Shown: positions 5,589 to 52,708, counted from the stretch's first letter. The stretch is DNA of 64,000 bases from an uncultured Veillonellaceae bacterium (GCA_963805085.1 CAWDTA010000004.1:192001-256000), one strand, 5' to 3'. A program made the numbers and translations. Notes: generated by a model not told the origin, from the sequence alone.

Positions 5589-6443
5589 CTAACCTCCGAT
5601 TATTGCATTATCGATTAATCTCGTCGTACTAAAACGCACCGCGAGAGCCATGATTGCTTGATCTTTTACCGTTTCGATTTCTTCTAAATCTGGAAAGCTA
5701 TAAATTTCCACATAGTCAATATCAGCTAATGGCTCTGCTTGAATCTGTTTCGTAAGCAAGCTCTTTAAAACTGCCACGTTCTTTTCACCGTTTGTATAGG
5801 CTTCTTTCGCAGCTTTTAAACTAGCGGATAAAACTAAAGCCGCTTCTTTTTCAGCAGTCGATAAATACTTGTTACGAGAACTCAAGGCAAGTCCATTGTC
5901 ATCGCGGACAATTGGTACCATTTCGACTGCCACATTGATATTCAAATCGCGGACAAAACGCTTGATTACAACAACCTGTTGCGCATCTTTTTGCCCAAAG
6001 AAAGCGTGATCTGCTTCAGTGATATTAAATAATTTTGTAACTACAGTCGCTACCCCACGAAAATGTCCGGGCCTGCGTGCACCACAAAGTTTACTGGTAA
6101 TGTCACCATCCACGGTAACATAGGCAGTATAATTTTCAGGATACAATTCAACCGCTTCGGGATGAAACACAGCATCCACCCCAACTGATTCCAATTTTGC
6201 GCAGTCACTTTCAAATTCACGCGGATAGGCAGCAAAATCTTCATTCGGTCCAAACTGTGTTGGATTTACAAAGACACTGGCTATAACGATATCACATTTT
6301 TCTTTTGCCGCTTTCATCAATGTTATATGCCCCTTGTGTAATGCTCCCATCGTTGGTACAAGTCCAATTGTTTTACCTGTTTTTTTTAGCGATCTGACAA
6401 AGTTTTTCATTTCGGCAACGGTTTTGATTACTTTCATTTGCAT
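5589..6443 (-). CDS. panC: Pantoate--beta-alanine ligase
   Basis: VPTMGALHKGH, RPGHFRGV, FGQKDAQQ, GLALSSRN. Confidence 0.95.
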   Translation of the reverse strand: MQMKVIKTVAEMKNFVRSLKKTGKTIGLVPTMGALHKGHITLMKAAKEKCDIVIASVFVNPTQFGPNEDFAAYPREFESDCAKLESVGVDAVFHPEAVELYPENYTAYVTVDGDITSKLCGARRPGHFRGVATVVTKLFNITEADHAFFGQKDAQQVVVIKRFVRDLNINVAVEMVPIVRDDNGLALSSRNKYLSTAEKEAALVLSASLKAAKEAYTNGEKNVAVLKSLLTKQIQAEPLADIDYVEIYSFPDLEEIETVKDQAIMALAVRFSTTRLIDNAIIGG

Positions 6444-7735: not shown

Positions 7736-8923
7736 TTAAGTTCGCTTCTGCTTGTAGATATAACGATAAAATACAAGCAAACTAATACCAAATAGCAATA
7801 ACCCTGTAAAGATAAACACATACTGGATTCCCATCAACGCTGCTATCGCACCACCTAATAGCGGGCCAATCATCGCACCGATCTGATATGCTGTCGTCGC
7901 AAAACCAAATACCCGCCCGCGGAAACTAGCCTCGGTACAATTGACGATAGTTGCACTAATCGAAGGATTTACCCCAACAATAAAGCTTCCCACCAAAAAC
8001 TGTAATGCACCAAACCCAATAACCGTCTCCGGAAAGAATTGCAAGAAATTAAAAATACCTGCCCCGCCAAAGGCAAATACCATCGCTTTAAAGTAACCAC
8101 TTCGTTGTCCATATCGACCCCAAAACGGTGTAGAAATAGCCCCAGCGATACCACCTAAACTAAAGATAATCCCCGCAGTAAGTACAACCCCTTCCATATC
8201 CCCTTGCAACTGGGCAATATATAGGGTCATAACTGGTTGTAAAATCATCATTGCCAATTGGATCAGTAAGGTTAATCCCATCATCTCTACTAACAACGAG
8301 TTTTTTGCAGCATGTTTTATATCTTCCATCATACTGCTGCCAGCATGACGATCTTCCACTCGTGCTGGTTCTTTTACAAAGAAAACAACGACAACTGTAA
8401 CCAATAATAGACATATGCCTGCCACAAAAAATGAAGCACGCATGCCAAAAACATGTGCCAAAGAGCCCCCGAGCAACGGACCTAACACCCCACCGATAAT
8501 CTGCCCAGTCTGGATAATCCCAAGAGAAAAGCCCAATTGTTCTTTAGGTGCGCTCGAAGATACTATTGCTAAAGAAGCAGGTAAAAACCCATTGGCAAAC
8601 CCTTGTAAGATCCTTACTCCGAGCAATTCGACTGGGCTTGTTACAATACCACCTAAAAAATACACAATTGCCAAACCTAAGCCGGCACGGATGGCCATCA
8701 AACGTTTACCATTTTTATCAGCAAATTTCCCCCAAATAGGCGCCATAATCGCTCCAACAAAAAAGCTAATCGAAAAAACCGCCCCTGACCACATTGCAAC
8801 ATCTTGTTCAGTAACACCAAGTTCTAATAAATATACGGGTAAAAATGGAATGATCATAGTATAACTTGCCGAGGTCAGTACTACACTAACACACAATACC
8901 CATAAGTTGATACGCCAATTCAC
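7736..8923 (-). CDS. MFS transporter, DHA1/MdtG-like
   Basis: WGKFADKNGKR motif A, GPLLGG motif C, about 12 TM segments. Confidence 0.85.
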   Translation of the reverse strand: MNWRINLWVLCVSVVLTSASYTMIIPFLPVYLLELGVTEQDVAMWSGAVFSISFFVGAIMAPIWGKFADKNGKRLMAIRAGLGLAIVYFLGGIVTSPVELLGVRILQGFANGFLPASLAIVSSSAPKEQLGFSLGIIQTGQIIGGVLGPLLGGSLAHVFGMRASFFVAGICLLLVTVVVVFFVKEPARVEDRHAGSSMMEDIKHAAKNSLLVEMMGLTLLIQLAMMILQPVMTLYIAQLQGDMEGVVLTAGIIFSLGGIAGAISTPFWGRYGQRSGYFKAMVFAFGGAGIFNFLQFFPETVIGFGALQFLVGSFIVGVNPSISATIVNCTEASFRGRVFGFATTAYQIGAMIGPLLGGAIAALMGIQYVFIFTGLLLFGISLLVFYRYIYKQKRT

Positions 8924-48356: not shown

Positions 48357-49529
48357 ATGAGAAATTTTACTTCCTTAAAAGCAGCGCAATTTACCGAATC
48401 GGTTATTCGTGAAATGTCACGCGTCGCAAATGCAAACAAAGCAGTTAACTTAGCACAAGGGTTTCCTGATTTTCCCGCACCAGATGCGCTAAAAATTGCT
48501 GCTGCTAAAGCAATTTTTAATGACCACAACCAATATGCCATCACTTGGGGTACTAAGGAACTTCGTGATGCTCTCGTTGGCAAAATTGAACGCGACTACA
48601 ATACAACCCTTGACCCCGAAAAACAAATCACGGTTTGCTGCGGAGCGACGGAAGGTATGATTGCCACATTACTTGCGACCATTAATCCTGGCGATGAAGT
48701 AATCATCTTTGAACCATTCTATGAAAATTATGGCGCCGATGTCATCCTTTGCGGAGCAACTCCTCGTTACATAACGTTAGAAGCACCAAATTATGTACTT
48801 GATAAAGAAAAACTAGCAAGTCTTTTCAATGAAAAAACTCGGGCAATTATTTTAAATACACCTAACAATCCAACTGGTAAAGTATTTACCTTAGGAGAAA
48901 CACAATTTATCGCTGATCTTTGCCAACAATACGATGCTTTAGCCATCAGCGATGAAATTTACGAACATATTGTATTCGATGGTACGAAACATATTCCGAT
49001 TTGGACGCTACCAAATATGTTTGAACGATCGATTGCCGTCAATAGTGTTTCTAAAACGTATAGTGTAACTGGTTGGCGGATTGGCTTTGTTACAGCTTCA
49101 CCTGAACTTACAGCATCTATCCGCAAGGTACATGATTTCCTAACGGTCGGGGCAGCAGCTCCGCTTCAAATGGCAATTGCCGAAGCTTTTAATTTCGGTC
49201 AAGATTATTATGATCAGCTCAGTGCCTTTTACTTAGAGCGCCGCGACTTTATGCTTAAGGTGTTAAATGATGTTGGCTTTCAATGTATTGTTCCCCATGG
49301 CGCTTATTACATCATGGCCGATATCACGAACTTTGGCTACGAAGATGATGTTGACTTTGCTTTTTACCTAGCTGAAAAAATTGGCGTAGCGGTAGTTCCC
49401 GGCTCGACTTTTTATCGCGCTAATATGCCTGACGGCAAAAAATATGTCCGCTTCTGCTTTTGTAAAGAATATACAACACTCCAAGCAGCTGCTGGTCGTT
49501 TAGCTAAATTAAAAGGTTATAAAAAATAA
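48357..49529 (+). CDS. PLP-dependent class I aminotransferase (YbdL/kynurenine aminotransferase-like)
   Basis: NLAQGFPDF, NTPNNPTGK, DEIYEH, SVSKTYSVTGWRIG. Confidence 0.88.
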   Translation: MRNFTSLKAAQFTESVIREMSRVANANKAVNLAQGFPDFPAPDALKIAAAKAIFNDHNQYAITWGTKELRDALVGKIERDYNTTLDPEKQITVCCGATEGMIATLLATINPGDEVIIFEPFYENYGADVILCGATPRYITLEAPNYVLDKEKLASLFNEKTRAIILNTPNNPTGKVFTLGETQFIADLCQQYDALAISDEIYEHIVFDGTKHIPIWTLPNMFERSIAVNSVSKTYSVTGWRIGFVTASPELTASIRKVHDFLTVGAAAPLQMAIAEAFNFGQDYYDQLSAFYLERRDFMLKVLNDVGFQCIVPHGAYYIMADITNFGYEDDVDFAFYLAEKIGVAVVPGSTFYRANMPDGKKYVRFCFCKEYTTLQAAAGRLAKLKGYKK

Positions 49530-49577
49530 AGACAAATGCCTAGCGAGTTTTATCTCTGCTAAGCATTTGTTTTCTTT

Positions 49578-49940
49578 TTATATGCCATCACCGTACAGCC
49601 CTTGTAAATCTTCAAAACGATGTTTTTCTAACTTTTCAATTTGTGCCACTTTATAATCCTTAATATTGATACTGATTTGCCCAAACTTAATATCTTTTAA
49701 ATAGCAATTTAACTTCTTACGTAAATTTTCATGAATCTGCTTGTTTGATAAAGTTCTTTTTTCTTTCTTTTTGCTGATGCTGGCAGCATCCAAACGAAAT
49801 TTTTCTGTTTTTTCAAATTGAATAAGACGTCCATCTTGAACTGTCAAAATTACCGTACCATAGCCTGTATCTATCACTTCATCTTCAATCAAAGTCCAAG
49901 CTTCTCCCGATATGATCAATGCAATCTCACCACCAAACAC
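49578..49940 (-). CDS. Tandem YezD/DUF2292 (OscA-like) domain protein with C-terminal YGDGI
   Basis: Two copies of the [YF]G.[VI].[LI].[VI].D.+[LV].Q.EK.EK.R[LF] pattern; own promoter TTGAAA-17-TAGTAT (50000-50028); the true start may be TTG at 49919. Confidence 0.75.
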   Translation of the reverse strand: MFGGEIALIISGEAWTLIEDEVIDTGYGTVILTVQDGRLIQFEKTEKFRLDAASISKKKEKRTLSNKQIHENLRKKLNCYLKDIKFGQISINIKDYKVAQIEKLEKHRFEDLQGLYGDGI

Positions 49941-50046
49941 TTCGTTTTTAAATTACATAGAAAGTTCCCGTAAAATGTTCCTTTTTTACATTTATAGGTA
50001 TACTATCATATAAAGCCATTTTTTTCAATTGGATCTATCAATGATT

Positions 50047-50910
50047 CTATAATGCGGTTTTTAACTTTTCGGTAAACTCCGCCCAACCAATACGCTCAAG
50101 CATCGTATAGAAACGTTCTTTCTTTTTGCCATTGGCTGCAAAATAGTCAAGTGTGATATCGATTACTTTATAAACCTCTTCAACACTAAATACTATTGGT
50201 ATAATTTTCTTACCAATAGCGATGGTATTGCCAAATAAACCGCCAAAATAAATTACAAATCCTTCTCGCCCTGTCCAGGACTTTCTCGGACAAATCTTAA
50301 CGCATTTGCCGCATTGTACACATTTATTTTCATTATAGTTTAATGTTTTTTTATTTTTATTTACGCGAATTGCTTTTCCTGGGCAGACTTTTACACAAGC
50401 GCTACAATAAACACAGTCGTCTTCCGACCACGCTGGCTGTAATCCACCTTTAATACCAATATCATTGATATCAGCTTTCAGGCAATTATTTCTACAGCCA
50501 GTAACACCAATTTTGATCTTATGTGGCAACTCACGACCATAACAACGTTTGTCAATTTCATCGGCAAGTGCTATCGTGTCAACATGCCCATGCTGACAAA
50601 CAGCATTTCCTTGACAGGCCGTTACCGTTCTAACTCTTGACCCACATACGCCAATTTGAACTTCACCATCTGCTAGTGCAGCTTTAAAAGCTTCGATATC
50701 TTCCAATTTGATATAGGGTATTTCCACGCTTTGTCTGGAAGTAATATGCACATAACCTTTGCCATATTTTTCAGCCGCTTCACTGATGGTCTGCAACTGC
50801 TTAGCAGTAATTTGTCCGCCGATCACCCTCAATCTTACCGAAAAATGATCTGCCTGATTTTGTAACATAAATCCATTGCTTTTTAAATTTTTATAATCAA
50901 CTTGTACCAT
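50047..50910 (-). CDS. Siroheme sulfite/nitrite reductase-like protein with a 2x[4Fe-4S] ferredoxin insert (AsrC/Dsr-like)
   Basis: VHITSRQSVE, ACQGNAVC, KIKIGVTGCRNNC, two CxxCxxCxxxCP motifs, KKERF..MLERIG. Confidence 0.85.
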   Translation of the reverse strand: MVQVDYKNLKSNGFMLQNQADHFSVRLRVIGGQITAKQLQTISEAAEKYGKGYVHITSRQSVEIPYIKLEDIEAFKAALADGEVQIGVCGSRVRTVTACQGNAVCQHGHVDTIALADEIDKRCYGRELPHKIKIGVTGCRNNCLKADINDIGIKGGLQPAWSEDDCVYCSACVKVCPGKAIRVNKNKKTLNYNENKCVQCGKCVKICPRKSWTGREGFVIYFGGLFGNTIAIGKKIIPIVFSVEEVYKVIDITLDYFAANGKKKERFYTMLERIGWAEFTEKLKTAL

Positions 50911-50952
50911 AAAAATTCTCCTTTATCTTATATTTTCAAAAACGCCAACACC

Positions 50953-51012
50953 AAAAAGGCAAAAGAGACAGAATTACACCTGTTATCTTTTGCCTTCAGT
51001 TATCTGATCAGC
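50953..51012 (-). promoter_or_regulatory. Leader element 1: 21-nt hairpin overlapping an intrinsic terminator
   Basis: GCTGATCAGATAACTGAAGGC, then AAAAGA..TCTTTTGCCTTTTT; promoter TTGACA-17-TAAATT at 51039-51067. Confidence 0.7.
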
Positions 51013-51246
51013 TAAATATTGAATTTACTATTTCATCTAATTTACTAGTTTTTTATTGATTTGTCAATATAAAGATTACATTTCACCTTACTTCTTTATG
51101 AAAAATTCTATTCTATATTGTTTTGACTATATAGTAAAATACATTTGTAGTTAATCCAACAACACTTGCGGTTATATTAAAAGGCAATTGTACAAGCTCG
51201 GTGCTTTCATTAATATTGCTGACAATCATCCAATTTTAGAAATAAC

Positions 51247-51305
51247 AAAAGGCAAAAAATATAAGGTCATTTCTTATATCTTCTGCCTTCAGCTTTCCGA
51301 TCAGC
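51247..51305 (-). promoter_or_regulatory. Leader element 2: 21-nt hairpin overlapping an intrinsic terminator
   Basis: GCTGATCGGAAAGCTGAAGGC, then AGAAGATATAAG..CTTATATTTTTTGCCTTTTG. Confidence 0.7.
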
Positions 51306-51395
51306 TAAATATTAAATTGGTTATCTTAAATTACGTTAAATATAATTCCGTTCATGAGAGCTAACTATCATTTAGTGATTTCGTTAAAGCAAATT

Positions 51396-51473
51396 TTATT
51401 TAGGTGCAATAGCAGTCACAAAAGTAAGCACCAATAATATTGCCATAATTCCATAATTTGTCTTTTGATTCAT
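51396..51473 (-). pseudogene. 25-aa signal-peptide-like ORF, probably the remnant of a deleted exported protein gene
   Basis: AAGGAGG RBS then MNQKTNYGIMAILLVLTFVTAIAPK*, directly after leader element 3. Confidence 0.45.
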
Positions 51474-51495
51474 AAGAAATACCCTCCTTGATAAT

Positions 51496-51556
51496 AAAAA
51501 GACAAAAGTAATAGATTCTAAAATCTATTGCCTTTGCCTTTAGATTTCTAATCAGC
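51496..51556 (-). promoter_or_regulatory. Leader element 3: 21-nt hairpin overlapping an intrinsic terminator
   Basis: GCTGATTAGAAATCTAAAGGC, then AAAGGCAATAGATT..AATCTATTACTTTTGTCTTTTT; consensus TTGACA-17-TATAAT at 51583-51611. Confidence 0.7.
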
Positions 51557-51854
51557 AAACCGCACTGTTTATTGATTTTTATATTATAATCCATTTTCAT
51601 AATTTTGTCAAGTATTTTTATAATTCAAGTGTGTGAATGATATACGATAATGTCCTATTATACAGTTTTTGATTATGTCCCAATCCACATGATATACTGT
51701 AGCCTTATTCAGAAAATATAGAATGTTACAGTTTTTTATTTATCTATTGTTTTTTTCCTTTTTTGTGTTAATATTATTGATTATACAATTAACTATATTT
51801 GGAATAAATATTAGTTAATACGTCATTAACAATATTAATAAGGAGGATTTTCTT

Positions 51855-52708
51855 ATGCAAATTTTAAGCAAAAACTTCCTATATATTCATTTGGTCGTTT
51901 TATTCTTTGCATTTTCTAGTTTATTTGGTGAGCTAATAACGTTACCAGCTCTTGCCATAATATTGGGTAGAGTCTTTTTTTCTTCGGCATTCCTATTTAT
52001 ATTCTCTCAATATAATAAAGAAACATTACGGTTTTCCAAGCGGATTAATCATGCCTATCTTGCTTTAATGGGGATTATCCTAGTGATTCATTGGGCAACA
52101 TTCTTTCAATCAGTGCAGCTGTCTACAGTCGCCATTGGCCTGCTGACGTTTTCCATCTTTCCTTTACTCGTACCTTATATGGAAAACTTCTTTTTAAAGA
52201 AAAGCTCAAACTCTCTGATATTATCATGGCAAACATCATGTTCTGCGGTATTTTATTGATATTACCAAACTTTGAAATACCCAATGCCACCATCCAAGGA
52301 ATACTTTACGGTTCTATCGCTGGTTTTACTTATGCAAATTTATCCTTGATTAACCGTAAATGTGTAAAAGAGTATTGTAGCCTCGTGATCTCGCTCTATG
52401 AGCAGGCAGTGGCAACGACATTTCTACTACCATTTCTTTTTATTGAAACACCTAAATTTACAATAAATGATATTTTATTACTCATGATTTTAGGTACAAT
52501 TTTGACAGGTATTGCACATGCATTATTTATTCATGGCTGGAAAAGTATTTGCGCTAAAACATCAGGTATGGTCACTTATTTTGAACCCATTTACGGAATC
52601 ATCATTGCTACAATGACGATTCAAGCAATTCCTACTGTTAATGAGATGTTTGGTGCCGTTATCATACTAAGCACTGTACTCTATCATTCCTTTAATCAAA
52701 GAGCTTAA
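51855..52708 (+). pseudogene. EamA/DMT transporter split by a 1-nt frameshift
   Basis: N-terminal half ..PYMENF joins C-terminal half FKEKLKLSD.. if the T5 run at 52191-52195 were T6. Confidence 0.7.

Follow-up and report, generated by a model that had tools for sequence, protein, structure and literature searches.

A 21-nucleotide RNA motif that overlaps intrinsic terminators and accompanies yezD genes: a candidate protein-dependent antiterminator for sulfur metabolism genes in Firmicutes

Why would a bacterium place three transcription terminators ahead of a single sulfite-reductase-like gene, and what might a small DUF2292 (YezD) protein encoded directly behind that gene have to do with them? 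These questions are raised by a locus from an uncultured Veillonellaceae bacterium. Its RNA leader, reductase-like gene and yezD gene all lie on the minus strand of a 64,000-nucleotide stretch of DNA (GCA_963805085.1, CAWDTA010000004.1:192001-256000), hereafter called the window. A preliminary description of the locus proposed that YezD domains are RNA-binding antiterminators and that this particular one is held or switched by CysK. The RNA motif in this leader is real, lies outside Rfam, and has only been hinted at in print. Once the proposal is corrected for scope, protein-mediated antitermination, in which both the protein family and the RNA element would be new, is the best-supported explanation for its function.

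Upstream of the reductase-like gene, the 22-nucleotide pattern GCTGATYRGAWANCTRAAGGCA matches at window positions 51012-50991, 51305-51284 and 51556-51535. No fourth match is found across the 64-kb window even with three mismatches, and dinucleotide shuffles give an expectation of 0.01 matches, with three matches in none of 100 shuffles. Every copy runs on into a hairpin and then a U tract, in agreement with the preliminary description, which had noticed three conserved hairpins that each overlap an intrinsic terminator. The proximal unit (copy 1, 50950..51012; 21-nucleotide motif GCUGAUCAGAUAACUGAAGGC at 51012-50992), the middle unit (copy 2, 51243..51305; motif GCUGAUCGGAAAGCUGAAGGC at 51305-51285) and the distal unit (copy 3, 51493..51556; motif GCUGAUUAGAAAUCUAAAGGC at 51556-51536), all on the minus strand, have fold z-scores of -2.6, -4.3 and -3.8, terminator energies of -17.7, -18.7 and -15.7 kcal/mol, and tails UUUUGGUGU, UUUGUUAUU and UUUUAUUAU, respectively. 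A covariance model built from 34 instances (R1) scores the three copies at 63.7, 55.3 and 60.0 bits. Copy 1, which stands approximately 40 nucleotides before the start of the reductase-like gene, is the highest-scoring R1 match in the genome. A simple terminator scan listed copy 2 only, because the terminator loops of copies 1 and 3 exceed the limit of that scan. Also on the minus strand, a putative sigma-70-type promoter that matches the consensus (TTGACA-17-TATAAT, 12 of 12 hexamer positions, 51583..51611) precedes the distal copy, and a promoter-like site (TTGACA-17-TAAATT, 10 of 12 positions, 51039..51067) precedes the proximal one. Since a terminator hairpin with its U tract separates the promoter from the gene, and an alternative structure shares nucleotides with the terminator, the three leader units are transcription attenuators. 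Very probably, they are genuine sulfur-responsive ones.

The motif comprises 21 nucleotides of the form GCUGA-hairpin-AAGGC, and each window copy runs into its intrinsic terminator. When the nucleotides are numbered G1 C2 U3 G4 A5 U6 C7 A8 G9, loop, C14 U15 G16 A17 A18 G19 G20 C21, helix P0 pairs positions 1-3 with 19-21, and the four-base-pair helix P1 pairs positions 6-9 with 14-17. The internal loop, with G4 and A5 on one side and A18 on the other, is essentially invariant. Among 53 distinct cores the hairpin loop is A-rich and 4-9 nucleotides long, and P1 covaries: N7-N16 is CG in 36, UA in 14 and UG in 3; N8-N15 is AU in 34 and GC in 16; and N6-N17 is UA in 47 and CG in 5. The f25 variant, CUGACCGG...CCGGAGGC, adds to this covariation. 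P0 never changes on both sides in Negativicutes. In Clostridia, N1-N21 is a Watson-Crick pair in all 15 yezD-adjacent instances (AU 9, GC 5, UA 1), and N2-N20 is CG in 13, UG in 1 and UA in 1. The minimum-energy fold of each window 21-mer is the hairpin composed of P0, loop and P1, at -5.0, -4.5 and -3.1 kcal/mol for copies 1 through 3.

The 3′ strand of this hairpin, A17/A18 through C21, also serves as the 5′ foot of the terminators, and thus the hairpin is an antiterminator. Without A17-C21, the leftover terminator stem amounts to -7 to -8 kcal/mol and ends four nucleotides before the U tract. By the established rules of intrinsic termination, a terminator whose A17-C21 segment is held in the hairpin should therefore no longer terminate. 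Judged by analogy, this anatomy is that of a protein- or ligand-stabilized antiterminator of the ribonucleic antiterminator (RAT) type. The covariation of P0 and P1 bears out the antiterminator form that the preliminary description had given to the hairpin.

The genome has six motif copies that score 55-64 bits with R1, three in the window leader and three elsewhere. One copy outside the window precedes genes for an MtaA/URO-D-like methyltransferase and an amino-acid-binding protein. Another precedes genes for an SsuA-family sulfonate-binding protein (272.5 bits) and its ATP-binding cassette (ABC) ATPase, and the third (L005, G000:C2:1022369-1022390, plus strand) lies between two methyl-accepting chemoreceptor genes. 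A weaker seventh candidate is located at G000:C2:1540058 (24.8 bits). The chemoreceptor copy has a U-C mismatch in P1 and carries A1 opposite C21; it may either terminate the first receptor gene or act as a leader for the second. The 30 nucleotides upstream of it are nearly identical to those before window copy 1, which suggests a recent duplication.

A strict pattern with one mismatch allowed was used to survey 401 Negativicutes genomes and matched 79 of them, some as many as 11 times; the reversed pattern, used as a control, had a single match in each of four genomes. R1 also recovers copies with 5-nucleotide loops that the strict pattern misses. A looser pattern, YYGATN10AAGGY, was dropped after it gave 60-80 matches per strand versus 30-50 for its reversed control. 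A hairpin and then at least four U residues in the next eight nucleotides follow 41 of 46 distinct instances, and three of the five instances without a terminator are plain false positives inside genes. The small-RNA-gene interpretation of these units (promoter, motif and terminator) was considered and not kept, because the units always directly precede co-oriented genes.

What do these genes encode? We scanned 27 first downstream proteins, a count that omits seven near-duplicate or same-genus rows (L007, L009 (two rows), L022, L027, L038 and L040). They include Cys_Met_Meta_PP (4), PALP/CysK-like (3), NIR_SIR (2) and SsuA-like (2) proteins, and the transporter families SBP_bac_3 (2), BPD_transp_1 (3) and SDF (1). 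The others are three URO-D/MtaA-like proteins, one each of a class I aminotransferase, a Cons_hypoth698 (YeiH-like) protein, a tandem DUF2292 protein, a hydrolase and a chemoreceptor, and two spurious short open reading frames without a family. Sulfur enzymes dominate the genes behind the motif, and the set is regulon-like. The covariance-model scan, which had been set beforehand as a test of the proposal, places the motif ahead of cysK, metY-type, ssuA, sulfite-reductase and cystine/methionine-transporter genes, as anticipated.

Searches of known RNA families reveal no counterpart. Between window positions 49000 and 53000, Rfam 15 gives nothing at the gathering score (leader copies are matched at best with 21.1 bits, by a microRNA model whose gathering score is 63), and it gives no match at the motif sites of four other motif-bearing loci. 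The motif is not mentioned in the portions of the Breaker-laboratory surveys that search terms reach. When the literature was searched for an earlier account of such a riboswitch or antiterminator, only a one-sentence mention was returned, in PMC2965389, and that sentence names no structure, protein partner or wider distribution in the part of the paper available. The sulfonate element mentioned there may well be the present motif. In Domibacillus, the motif occurs ahead of ssuBACD and of the small gene yezD.

The association with yezD extends well beyond this genome. A scan for related loci, using one genome per species and a query alignment of 11 rows from the tandem YezD, yielded 80 loci (1.04 Mb) that span Negativicutes, Bacilli (Neobacillus, Mesobacillus, Domibacillus, Thermoactinomyces and Paenibacillus), Clostridia (Lachnospiraceae and Ruminococcus), Verrucomicrobia, Planctomycetes and others. 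R1 has 98 matches in these loci, or 91 once reverse-strand shadows of the same terminators are excluded, and 88 of the 91 share the yezD strand. In 37 of the 80 loci, an R1 match on the yezD strand starts 0-200 nucleotides beyond the yezD match. It overlaps the yezD match in two further loci, where the tblastn match overruns the stop codon, and it starts at most 350 nucleotides upstream of yezD in eight. When the sequences were read directly, variants missed by R1 were seen after the yezD stop codon in nine more loci: three from Lachnospiraceae (L157, L186 and L187), and L188, L190, L197, L199, L139 and L166. The motif overlaps the TGA stop codon of yezD in L188, L190 and L197. In whole-genome scans, the top match of a 6.1-Mb Neobacillus genome and the sole match of a Lachnospiraceae genome sit behind yezD, and the top Thermoactinomyces match and all four Domibacillus matches are at yezD or the yezD/ssu locus.

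Similar results are obtained from sampled genomes. An even set of 151 Bacilli genomes includes 41 with the motif, 56 with DUF2292 and 37 with both; the four that carry the motif only have the weakest scores (27.4-30.5 bits). The motif lies 45-135 nucleotides behind yezD in 13 Bacilli genomes and approximately 290 nucleotides before it in one. DUF2292 is present in 11 of 201 Clostridia genomes, and 8 of these 11 genes are followed by the motif within approximately 40 nucleotides. Four of 15 Clostridia instances of the motif begin five nucleotides short of the stop codon's end, and several others begin 1-15 nucleotides past it. Among the 79 pattern-positive Negativicutes genomes, 74 have DUF2292; of the five that lack it, two are false positives, and the other three genomes are 95, 90 and 58% complete. 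The preliminary description had expected the motif to occur beside DUF2292 genes, and the two indeed co-occur in three Firmicutes classes.

The genes that follow the yezD-motif pair vary. They are sbp-cysTWA in Neobacillus, Mesobacillus and Domibacillus, ssuA in Thermoactinomyces, metNIQ-like ABC genes in Lachnospiraceae, a cystathionine-type enzyme or ABC permease gene in other Clostridia, and cysK or metY in Negativicutes. A distant YezD-like subfamily, also followed by motif and terminator, precedes genes for DUF4430 or unannotated secreted proteins. The proposal of a sulfur-sensing module thus holds in part: mostly sulfur genes stand behind the motif, but the cargo of the distant subfamily means that the module is not strictly a sulfur sensor. 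In the loci read, no gene other than yezD was seen to travel with the motif. By analogy with known systems, a constant yezD-motif pair before changing cargo is the signature of antitermination modules of the hutP or bglG type.

Several variants of this arrangement were observed. In L218, L219 and L220 (Clostridia genomes G667, G575 and G585), members of the distant subfamily (…IIQDK.PIRIEE.KKSIKL; PF10055 E-values of 1e-4 to 2e-5) have genes for large secreted proteins downstream. L139, after position 8324, and G121:C66:1381-1400 carry the variant GCUGAUGAG-UCAA-CUGAAGGC directly after a tailed yezD, with no recognizable terminator ahead of metY. In a metagenome-assembled genome from Verrucomicrobia, GCUGACCGG-UUAA-CCGGAAG, which R1 does not score, occurs approximately 75 nucleotides after yezD (L166, approximately 6270-6330). 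The hairpin after this motif, read by eye, pairs the AAGGA ribosome-binding site of the next gene in its 3′ arm, and L166 may therefore carry a translational version of the switch.

Could the motif be a very small metabolite riboswitch, for example for O-acetylserine, sulfide or a related thiol compound, such that YezD is co-regulated without touching the RNA? The unpaired nucleotides G4, A5 and A18 are conserved in sequence, the motif heads a metabolic regulon, and expression platforms differ, with terminators in Firmicutes versus the hairpin that, by eye, sequesters the ribosome-binding site in Verrucomicrobia L166. Furthermore, small riboswitches embedded in terminators exist, as illustrated by the thiS/HMP-PP class in the accessible part of PMC6429828. 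However, a 21-nucleotide hairpin with a variable loop of 4-9 nucleotides leaves little room for a pocket. A riboswitch also provides no reason for yezD to lie directly 5′ of the motif in three classes while the cargo changes, for the distant YezD-like subfamily and motif to precede non-sulfur genes (DUF4430 and secreted proteins), or for motif-positive Bacilli to carry yezD nearly always (37 of 41, the exceptions being weak matches). A constant regulator and site combined with changing cargo is hard to reconcile with metabolite sensing by the RNA, and we consider a riboswitch rather unlikely.

We propose instead that YezD, a member of the DUF2292 family that includes OscA, is a small RNA-binding antiterminator. 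In the default state the strong terminator would win, and transcription would stop before the sulfite-reductase-like gene. YezD would clamp the 21-nucleotide hairpin, thereby denying the terminator the final five pairs beside the U tract and letting RNA polymerase continue past it. In this organism, YezD would serve a sulfur regulon of at least five operons, whereas its usual targets in Bacilli and Clostridia would be the one or two terminators that immediately follow yezD itself. The Negativicutes tandem, or pair of genes, would act as a pseudo-dimer, and the G-[D/E]-G-I tail of its second domain would dock in the CysK active site as the CysE tail does. When O-acetylserine is low, CysK would hold YezD. 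When sulfide is short, O-acetylserine would accumulate and displace the tail, leaving YezD free to antiterminate. Because yezD stands behind the genes that it would open, this arrangement implies positive feedback in the window.

The analysis establishes the motif, its covarying structure, the genes that it accompanies, its linkage to yezD and the conservation of the tail; the RNA binding by YezD, the sign of its effect, its binding to CysK and its release by O-acetylserine we infer. That YezD acts at this RNA is the narrower claim, and we consider it probable. The full model, in which YezD is an antiterminator and CysK gates it in Negativicutes, has about an even chance of being correct. A broader generalization is more tentative and stands somewhat below even: that DUF2292/YezD/OscA proteins are widespread, hitherto unrecognized miniature RNA-binding antiterminators, each with a partner 21-nucleotide hairpin absent from databases, and that the CysE-mimicking tandem of Negativicutes makes the CysK active site an O-acetylserine/sulfide sensor for control of an entire sulfur regulon at the RNA level.

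The protein at the center of this proposal is encoded at 49578..49940 on the minus strand if translation begins at a GTG codon, or at 49578..49919 if it begins at a TTG codon, and the latter start (49919) has a better Shine-Dalgarno sequence than the former (49940). The product of 113-120 amino acids has two DUF2292 domains, a basic linker and the C-terminus ...LQGLYGDGI. Both DUF2292 stretches are recognized by PF10055 (E-value 4.6e-20; 71.4 bits versus a cut-off of 22), and in a whole-genome scan, which found both domains, this yezD is the only DUF2292 gene. It lies 106 nucleotides downstream of the gene for the siroheme sulfite-reductase-like protein (50047..50910, minus strand; 287 amino acids), which is of the small AsrC/Dsr-like type (PF03460, 2.2e-22; PF01077, 9.2e-32; Fer4). 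Coordinates and Pfam domains thus agree with the earlier claim of a tandem YezD with a YGDGI tail directly downstream of such a gene. The closest named relative, among four found by a word-indexed search, is an Anaerosinus massiliensis/Massilibacillus YezD family protein with 85% identity, and a metagenome-assembled Massilibacillus genome carries the same locus at 97% identity. The OscA equivalog model NF033785 scores 45.5 bits versus a cut-off of 85, and only domain 2 aligns, so that window YezD would by sequence be classed as a relative of OscA rather than as its equivalog.

An AlphaFold2 model of window YezD (predicted local distance difference test (pLDDT) value 83.9; predicted template modeling score 0.73) has a low-confidence C-terminal tail and depicts each DUF2292 domain as one helix and a long β-hairpin, formed by approximately 37-50 amino acids. 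Residues 50-112 give PDB sequence matches to staphylococcal superantigen-like β-grasp domains (best E-value 0.0033), which are weak, probably due to chance, and were set aside. YezD proteins are mostly basic, with a median isoelectric point of 8.9 and values above 8 in 46 of 66. This charge is compatible with RNA binding, and proves nothing. Function is not addressed in the papers that full-text searches for DUF2292 found, and no YezD relative on viral contigs was confirmed by tblastn. One to six DUF2292-like stretches also occur in each of three giant representatives, P0012 (3464 amino acids), P0049 (1569 amino acids, six stretches) and P0085 (2974 amino acids), with E-values of 9.5e-13 to 2.8e-4.

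How might such a protein sense sulfur status? An exhaustive search of representatives clustered at 50% identity (n=84) reveals that 71 end in G[D/E/A]GI (GDGI 45, GEGI 24, GAGI 2; 30-46% identity). Where two adjacent single-domain yezD genes are present, only the second encodes the tail (8 of 8 loci). The window sequence YGDGI is identical to the last five residues of Salmonella CysE, a pentapeptide that binds CysK with a dissociation constant of 11.8 uM according to the accessible part of PMC9547175. Window YezD presents what a CysK-docking tail requires, namely a free C-terminal isoleucine on a short flexible peptide that is equal to a known binder. Gene order in Negativicutes points in the same direction. 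Eight regions from five families were compared. In five of them (L113-L117), genes for methionine/cysteine conversion are followed by yezD, motif and terminator, and cysK, and in the remaining three (L118, L120 and L121) the distance from yezD to a cysK gene with its own motif is at most 3 kb. In the genome studied here, cysK is located at G000:C2:242706-243608, away from the window yezD, and the housekeeping CysE (L085, 1252-1998) ends in VKSL, without the usual isoleucine tail. In Pelosinus propionicus (L126, 6512-6614), an S-adenosylmethionine (SAM) riboswitch (91.4 bits) heads an operon that ends in yezD and is followed by the motif and cysK. This arrangement suggests a relay from SAM to cysteine synthesis.

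Prediction of a CysK-YezD complex from our own alignments gave a score of 0.54, versus 0.00 for the best of three controls, a result graded as weak support. Of 80 solved complexes, 58 passed the mark used, as did 2 of 110 mismatched pairs; scores of at most 0.60 include only 7 of the 80 solved complexes and both mismatches that passed. At least 75% of contacts are shared between runs, and partner pLDDT values are at least 76. Because CysK-peptide complexes have already been solved, the pass may reflect likeness to these structures. CysK gating, as initially proposed for YezD, survives in a restricted form. The conserved tail and the yezD-motif-cysK order favor it in Negativicutes, but the YezD proteins of Bacilli and Clostridia are single-domain and tail-less, ending in short basic stretches or right after EKHRL. 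Since these tail-less proteins are encoded directly before the motif, the pairing of YezD and motif is independent of CysK, and CysK gating would be an addition made in Negativicutes rather than a mechanism of the whole family.

Some observations weigh against the antitermination model. Foldseek finds no PDB relative of the YezD model at E <= 0.001, and the best Z value from VIA-align wide (4.7) is within the stated background range of that tool. With no significant solved relative, no RNA-binding fold supports the claim of RNA binding. Four Negativicutes copies of the motif have a mismatch in P0, with A1 opposite C21. Kinship within classes inflates the co-occurrence counts, although the pattern nonetheless recurs in three Firmicutes classes. 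DUF2292 outnumbers the motif in Negativicutes (130 versus 79 of 401 genomes) and, of 110 Bacilli genomes that lack the motif, 19 carry DUF2292. R1 has no convincing match (best E-values 0.03 and 0.007) in two Selenomonadaceae-type genomes whose YezD is a tailed tandem, a Selenomonas/Mitsuokella-type tandem with a GEGI tail has a plain terminator only, and Paenibacillus yezD runs straight into cysT without a motif. In the window, yezD stands behind its target gene and not ahead of a motif. CysK binding by YezD, moreover, is deduced from tail identity, synteny and one weak model score. A CymR-like Rrf2 gene (L081, 2653-3099, plus strand) is divergent from cysK, and its product, which also has a C-terminal isoleucine (LMYFI), could carry the CysK signal by itself; this product reaches 105.2 of the 195 bits that the CymR equivalog model requires.

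The lack of a known RNA-binding fold in the Foldseek and VIA-align searches and the many genomes with yezD and no motif would also be expected if YezD were a CysK-binding or sulfate-uptake accessory protein without an RNA role, and if another protein bound the motif. In keeping with this possibility, oscA is needed for the response to sulfur starvation and chromate and is co-transcribed with sbp in Pseudomonas corrugata (accessible part of PMC2996968, citing Viti et al. 2009). An accessory protein, however, leaves unexplained the tight spacing of yezD and motif, including the stop-codon overlap in four Clostridia loci, and the persistence of the pair with unrelated cargo when no other gene travels with the motif. 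We regard this explanation as unlikely.

The same linkage and tail data fit an opposite logic, in which a YezD-CysK complex binds the RNA or in which YezD binding favors termination. The data leave the sign unfixed, and in the CymR system the regulator is activated, not sequestered, when CysK binds. Nevertheless, the covarying hairpin of P0 and P1 competes with the terminator foot. A protein that recognizes this hairpin should stabilize it and thereby antiterminate, and the tail-less YezD proteins of Bacilli and Clostridia must work without CysK. Thus, the opposite logic appears quite unlikely.

The position of the motif at the yezD stop codon in 4 of 15 Clostridia instances, or 1-15 nucleotides after it in several, could also mean that yezD is a leader open reading frame, with the ribosome that finishes yezD covering the start of the hairpin in a form of translation-coupled attenuation. 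Such coupling is very unlikely given that no yezD precedes the motif in the window or at the other copies in this genome, that the gap in Bacilli is 45-135 nucleotides, and that YezD sequence and fold are conserved far beyond the needs of a leader peptide. Finally, a DNA operator, for example for a CymR-like Rrf2 protein, is suggested by the palindromic sequence CTGATCAG in copy 1 and by the Rrf2 genes that adjoin yezD in Bacilli, but is rejected as exceedingly improbable because compensatory changes preserve pairing rather than sequence and because the motif is co-oriented with the downstream gene (88 of 91 on the yezD strand), and it is also always fused in register to a terminator and located downstream of promoters.

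Antitermination by YezD would have precedents in several known systems. Like the present motif, the RAT sites recognized by BglG, SacY and LicT (Escherichia coli bgl; Bacillus subtilis sac and lic) are short imperfect hairpins with an internal loop that overlap the 5′ foot of a terminator and act in a protein-dependent manner. BglG-type systems have the layout terminator-regulator-terminator-structural genes, which the Domibacillus order motif-yezD-motif-sbp resembles, and a metabolic or transport protein acts as the gate on their regulator. LicT and its RAT are described in the accessible parts of PMC5393181 and PMC3575810. YezD differs from these proteins in having no CAT or PRD domain (Pfam at E <= 0.01 gives DUF2292 only), in its RNA consensus and in its proposed gate, which is tail docking in CysK rather than phosphorylation by the phosphotransferase system. 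The likeness is therefore in mechanism only. The hut operon of B. subtilis parallels the yezD-motif-target order of Bacilli and Clostridia, since a small regulator encoded by the first gene, HutP, is followed by the terminator that it opens. HutP, a hexamer that requires histidine and recognizes UAG repeats, is unrelated to YezD in sequence.

In B. subtilis and Staphylococcus aureus, CymR-CysK uses CysK as an O-acetylserine sensor for sulfur genes, as in our proposal. The target of CymR is promoter DNA, in contrast to the present motif, which is an RNA at terminators. The CysE-CysK complex shares the pentapeptide noted above, although YezD is no acetyltransferase. OscA of Pseudomonas belongs to the same Pfam family; window YezD differs as a tailed tandem. 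The oscA-sbp unit of P. corrugata, in the accessible part of PMC2996968, parallels the Bacilli yezD genes that lie directly before sbp-cysTWA, and the OscA literature found offers no mechanism in print. The S-box (SAM-I) riboswitch regulon likewise places many methionine and cysteine genes under terminator-based control by leader RNAs. In contrast to S-box leaders, the motif sites have no SAM aptamer by Rfam, and the motif is five times smaller.

If the model is correct, a protein family that has only a phenotype (for OscA, sulfur starvation and chromate resistance) would gain a mechanism, and a cis-regulatory RNA absent from Rfam 15 would control cysteine, methionine, sulfonate and sulfite genes in three Firmicutes classes. 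Termination in Bacillus ssu-type leaders is regulated by sulfur, and the model may explain this as well. As a CysK client that acts on RNA, YezD would join CysE, CymR and CdiA toxins as a fourth class and provide an RNA counterpart of CymR-CysK. A system comprised of a protein of 50-113 amino acids and a 21-nucleotide RNA is small enough to suit structural work and is a possible compact antitermination switch.

Other features of the locus are of less consequence for this question. The reductase-like protein combines NIR_SIR_ferr and NIR_SIR domains with an inserted ferredoxin module (2x[4Fe-4S]) by Pfam. Among NCBIfam models it matches sulfite reductase subunit C (TIGR02912) best, with 165.7 bits against a required 324.1, and the dsrB model gives 115.9 bits versus a cut-off of 341.5. 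Thus, the protein appears by its domains to be of the siroheme sulfite/nitrite reductase type, without reaching the equivalog class of TIGR02912 or DsrAB. Between copies 3 and 2 lies a small open reading frame (51400..51477, minus strand) for a hydrophobic peptide of 25 amino acids, MNQKTNYGIMAILLVLTFVTAIAPK, with a strong Shine-Dalgarno sequence, AAGGAGGG, read seven nucleotides before its ATG codon. The peptide matched no Pfam family, and the start of this open reading frame recurs in the same-genus genome G001 (L009) with one codon different. In the 106-nucleotide gap ahead of yezD, a weak promoter-like site with a TG element (TTGAAA-17-TAGTAT, 50000..50028, minus strand) agrees with the hexamers at 9 of 12 positions, a level that shuffled background also attains, and is a mere possibility. 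Divergent from the leader, an EamA-type transporter gene (51855-52708, plus strand) is split into two overlapping open reading frames of 134 and 205 amino acids, which could reflect a frameshift, a pseudogene or an assembly error. At the other end of the locus, a hairpin flanked by T and A runs (49520..49577) was read from the sequence between yezD and a convergent aminotransferase gene. It is absent from the terminator-scan list and is probably a two-way terminator.

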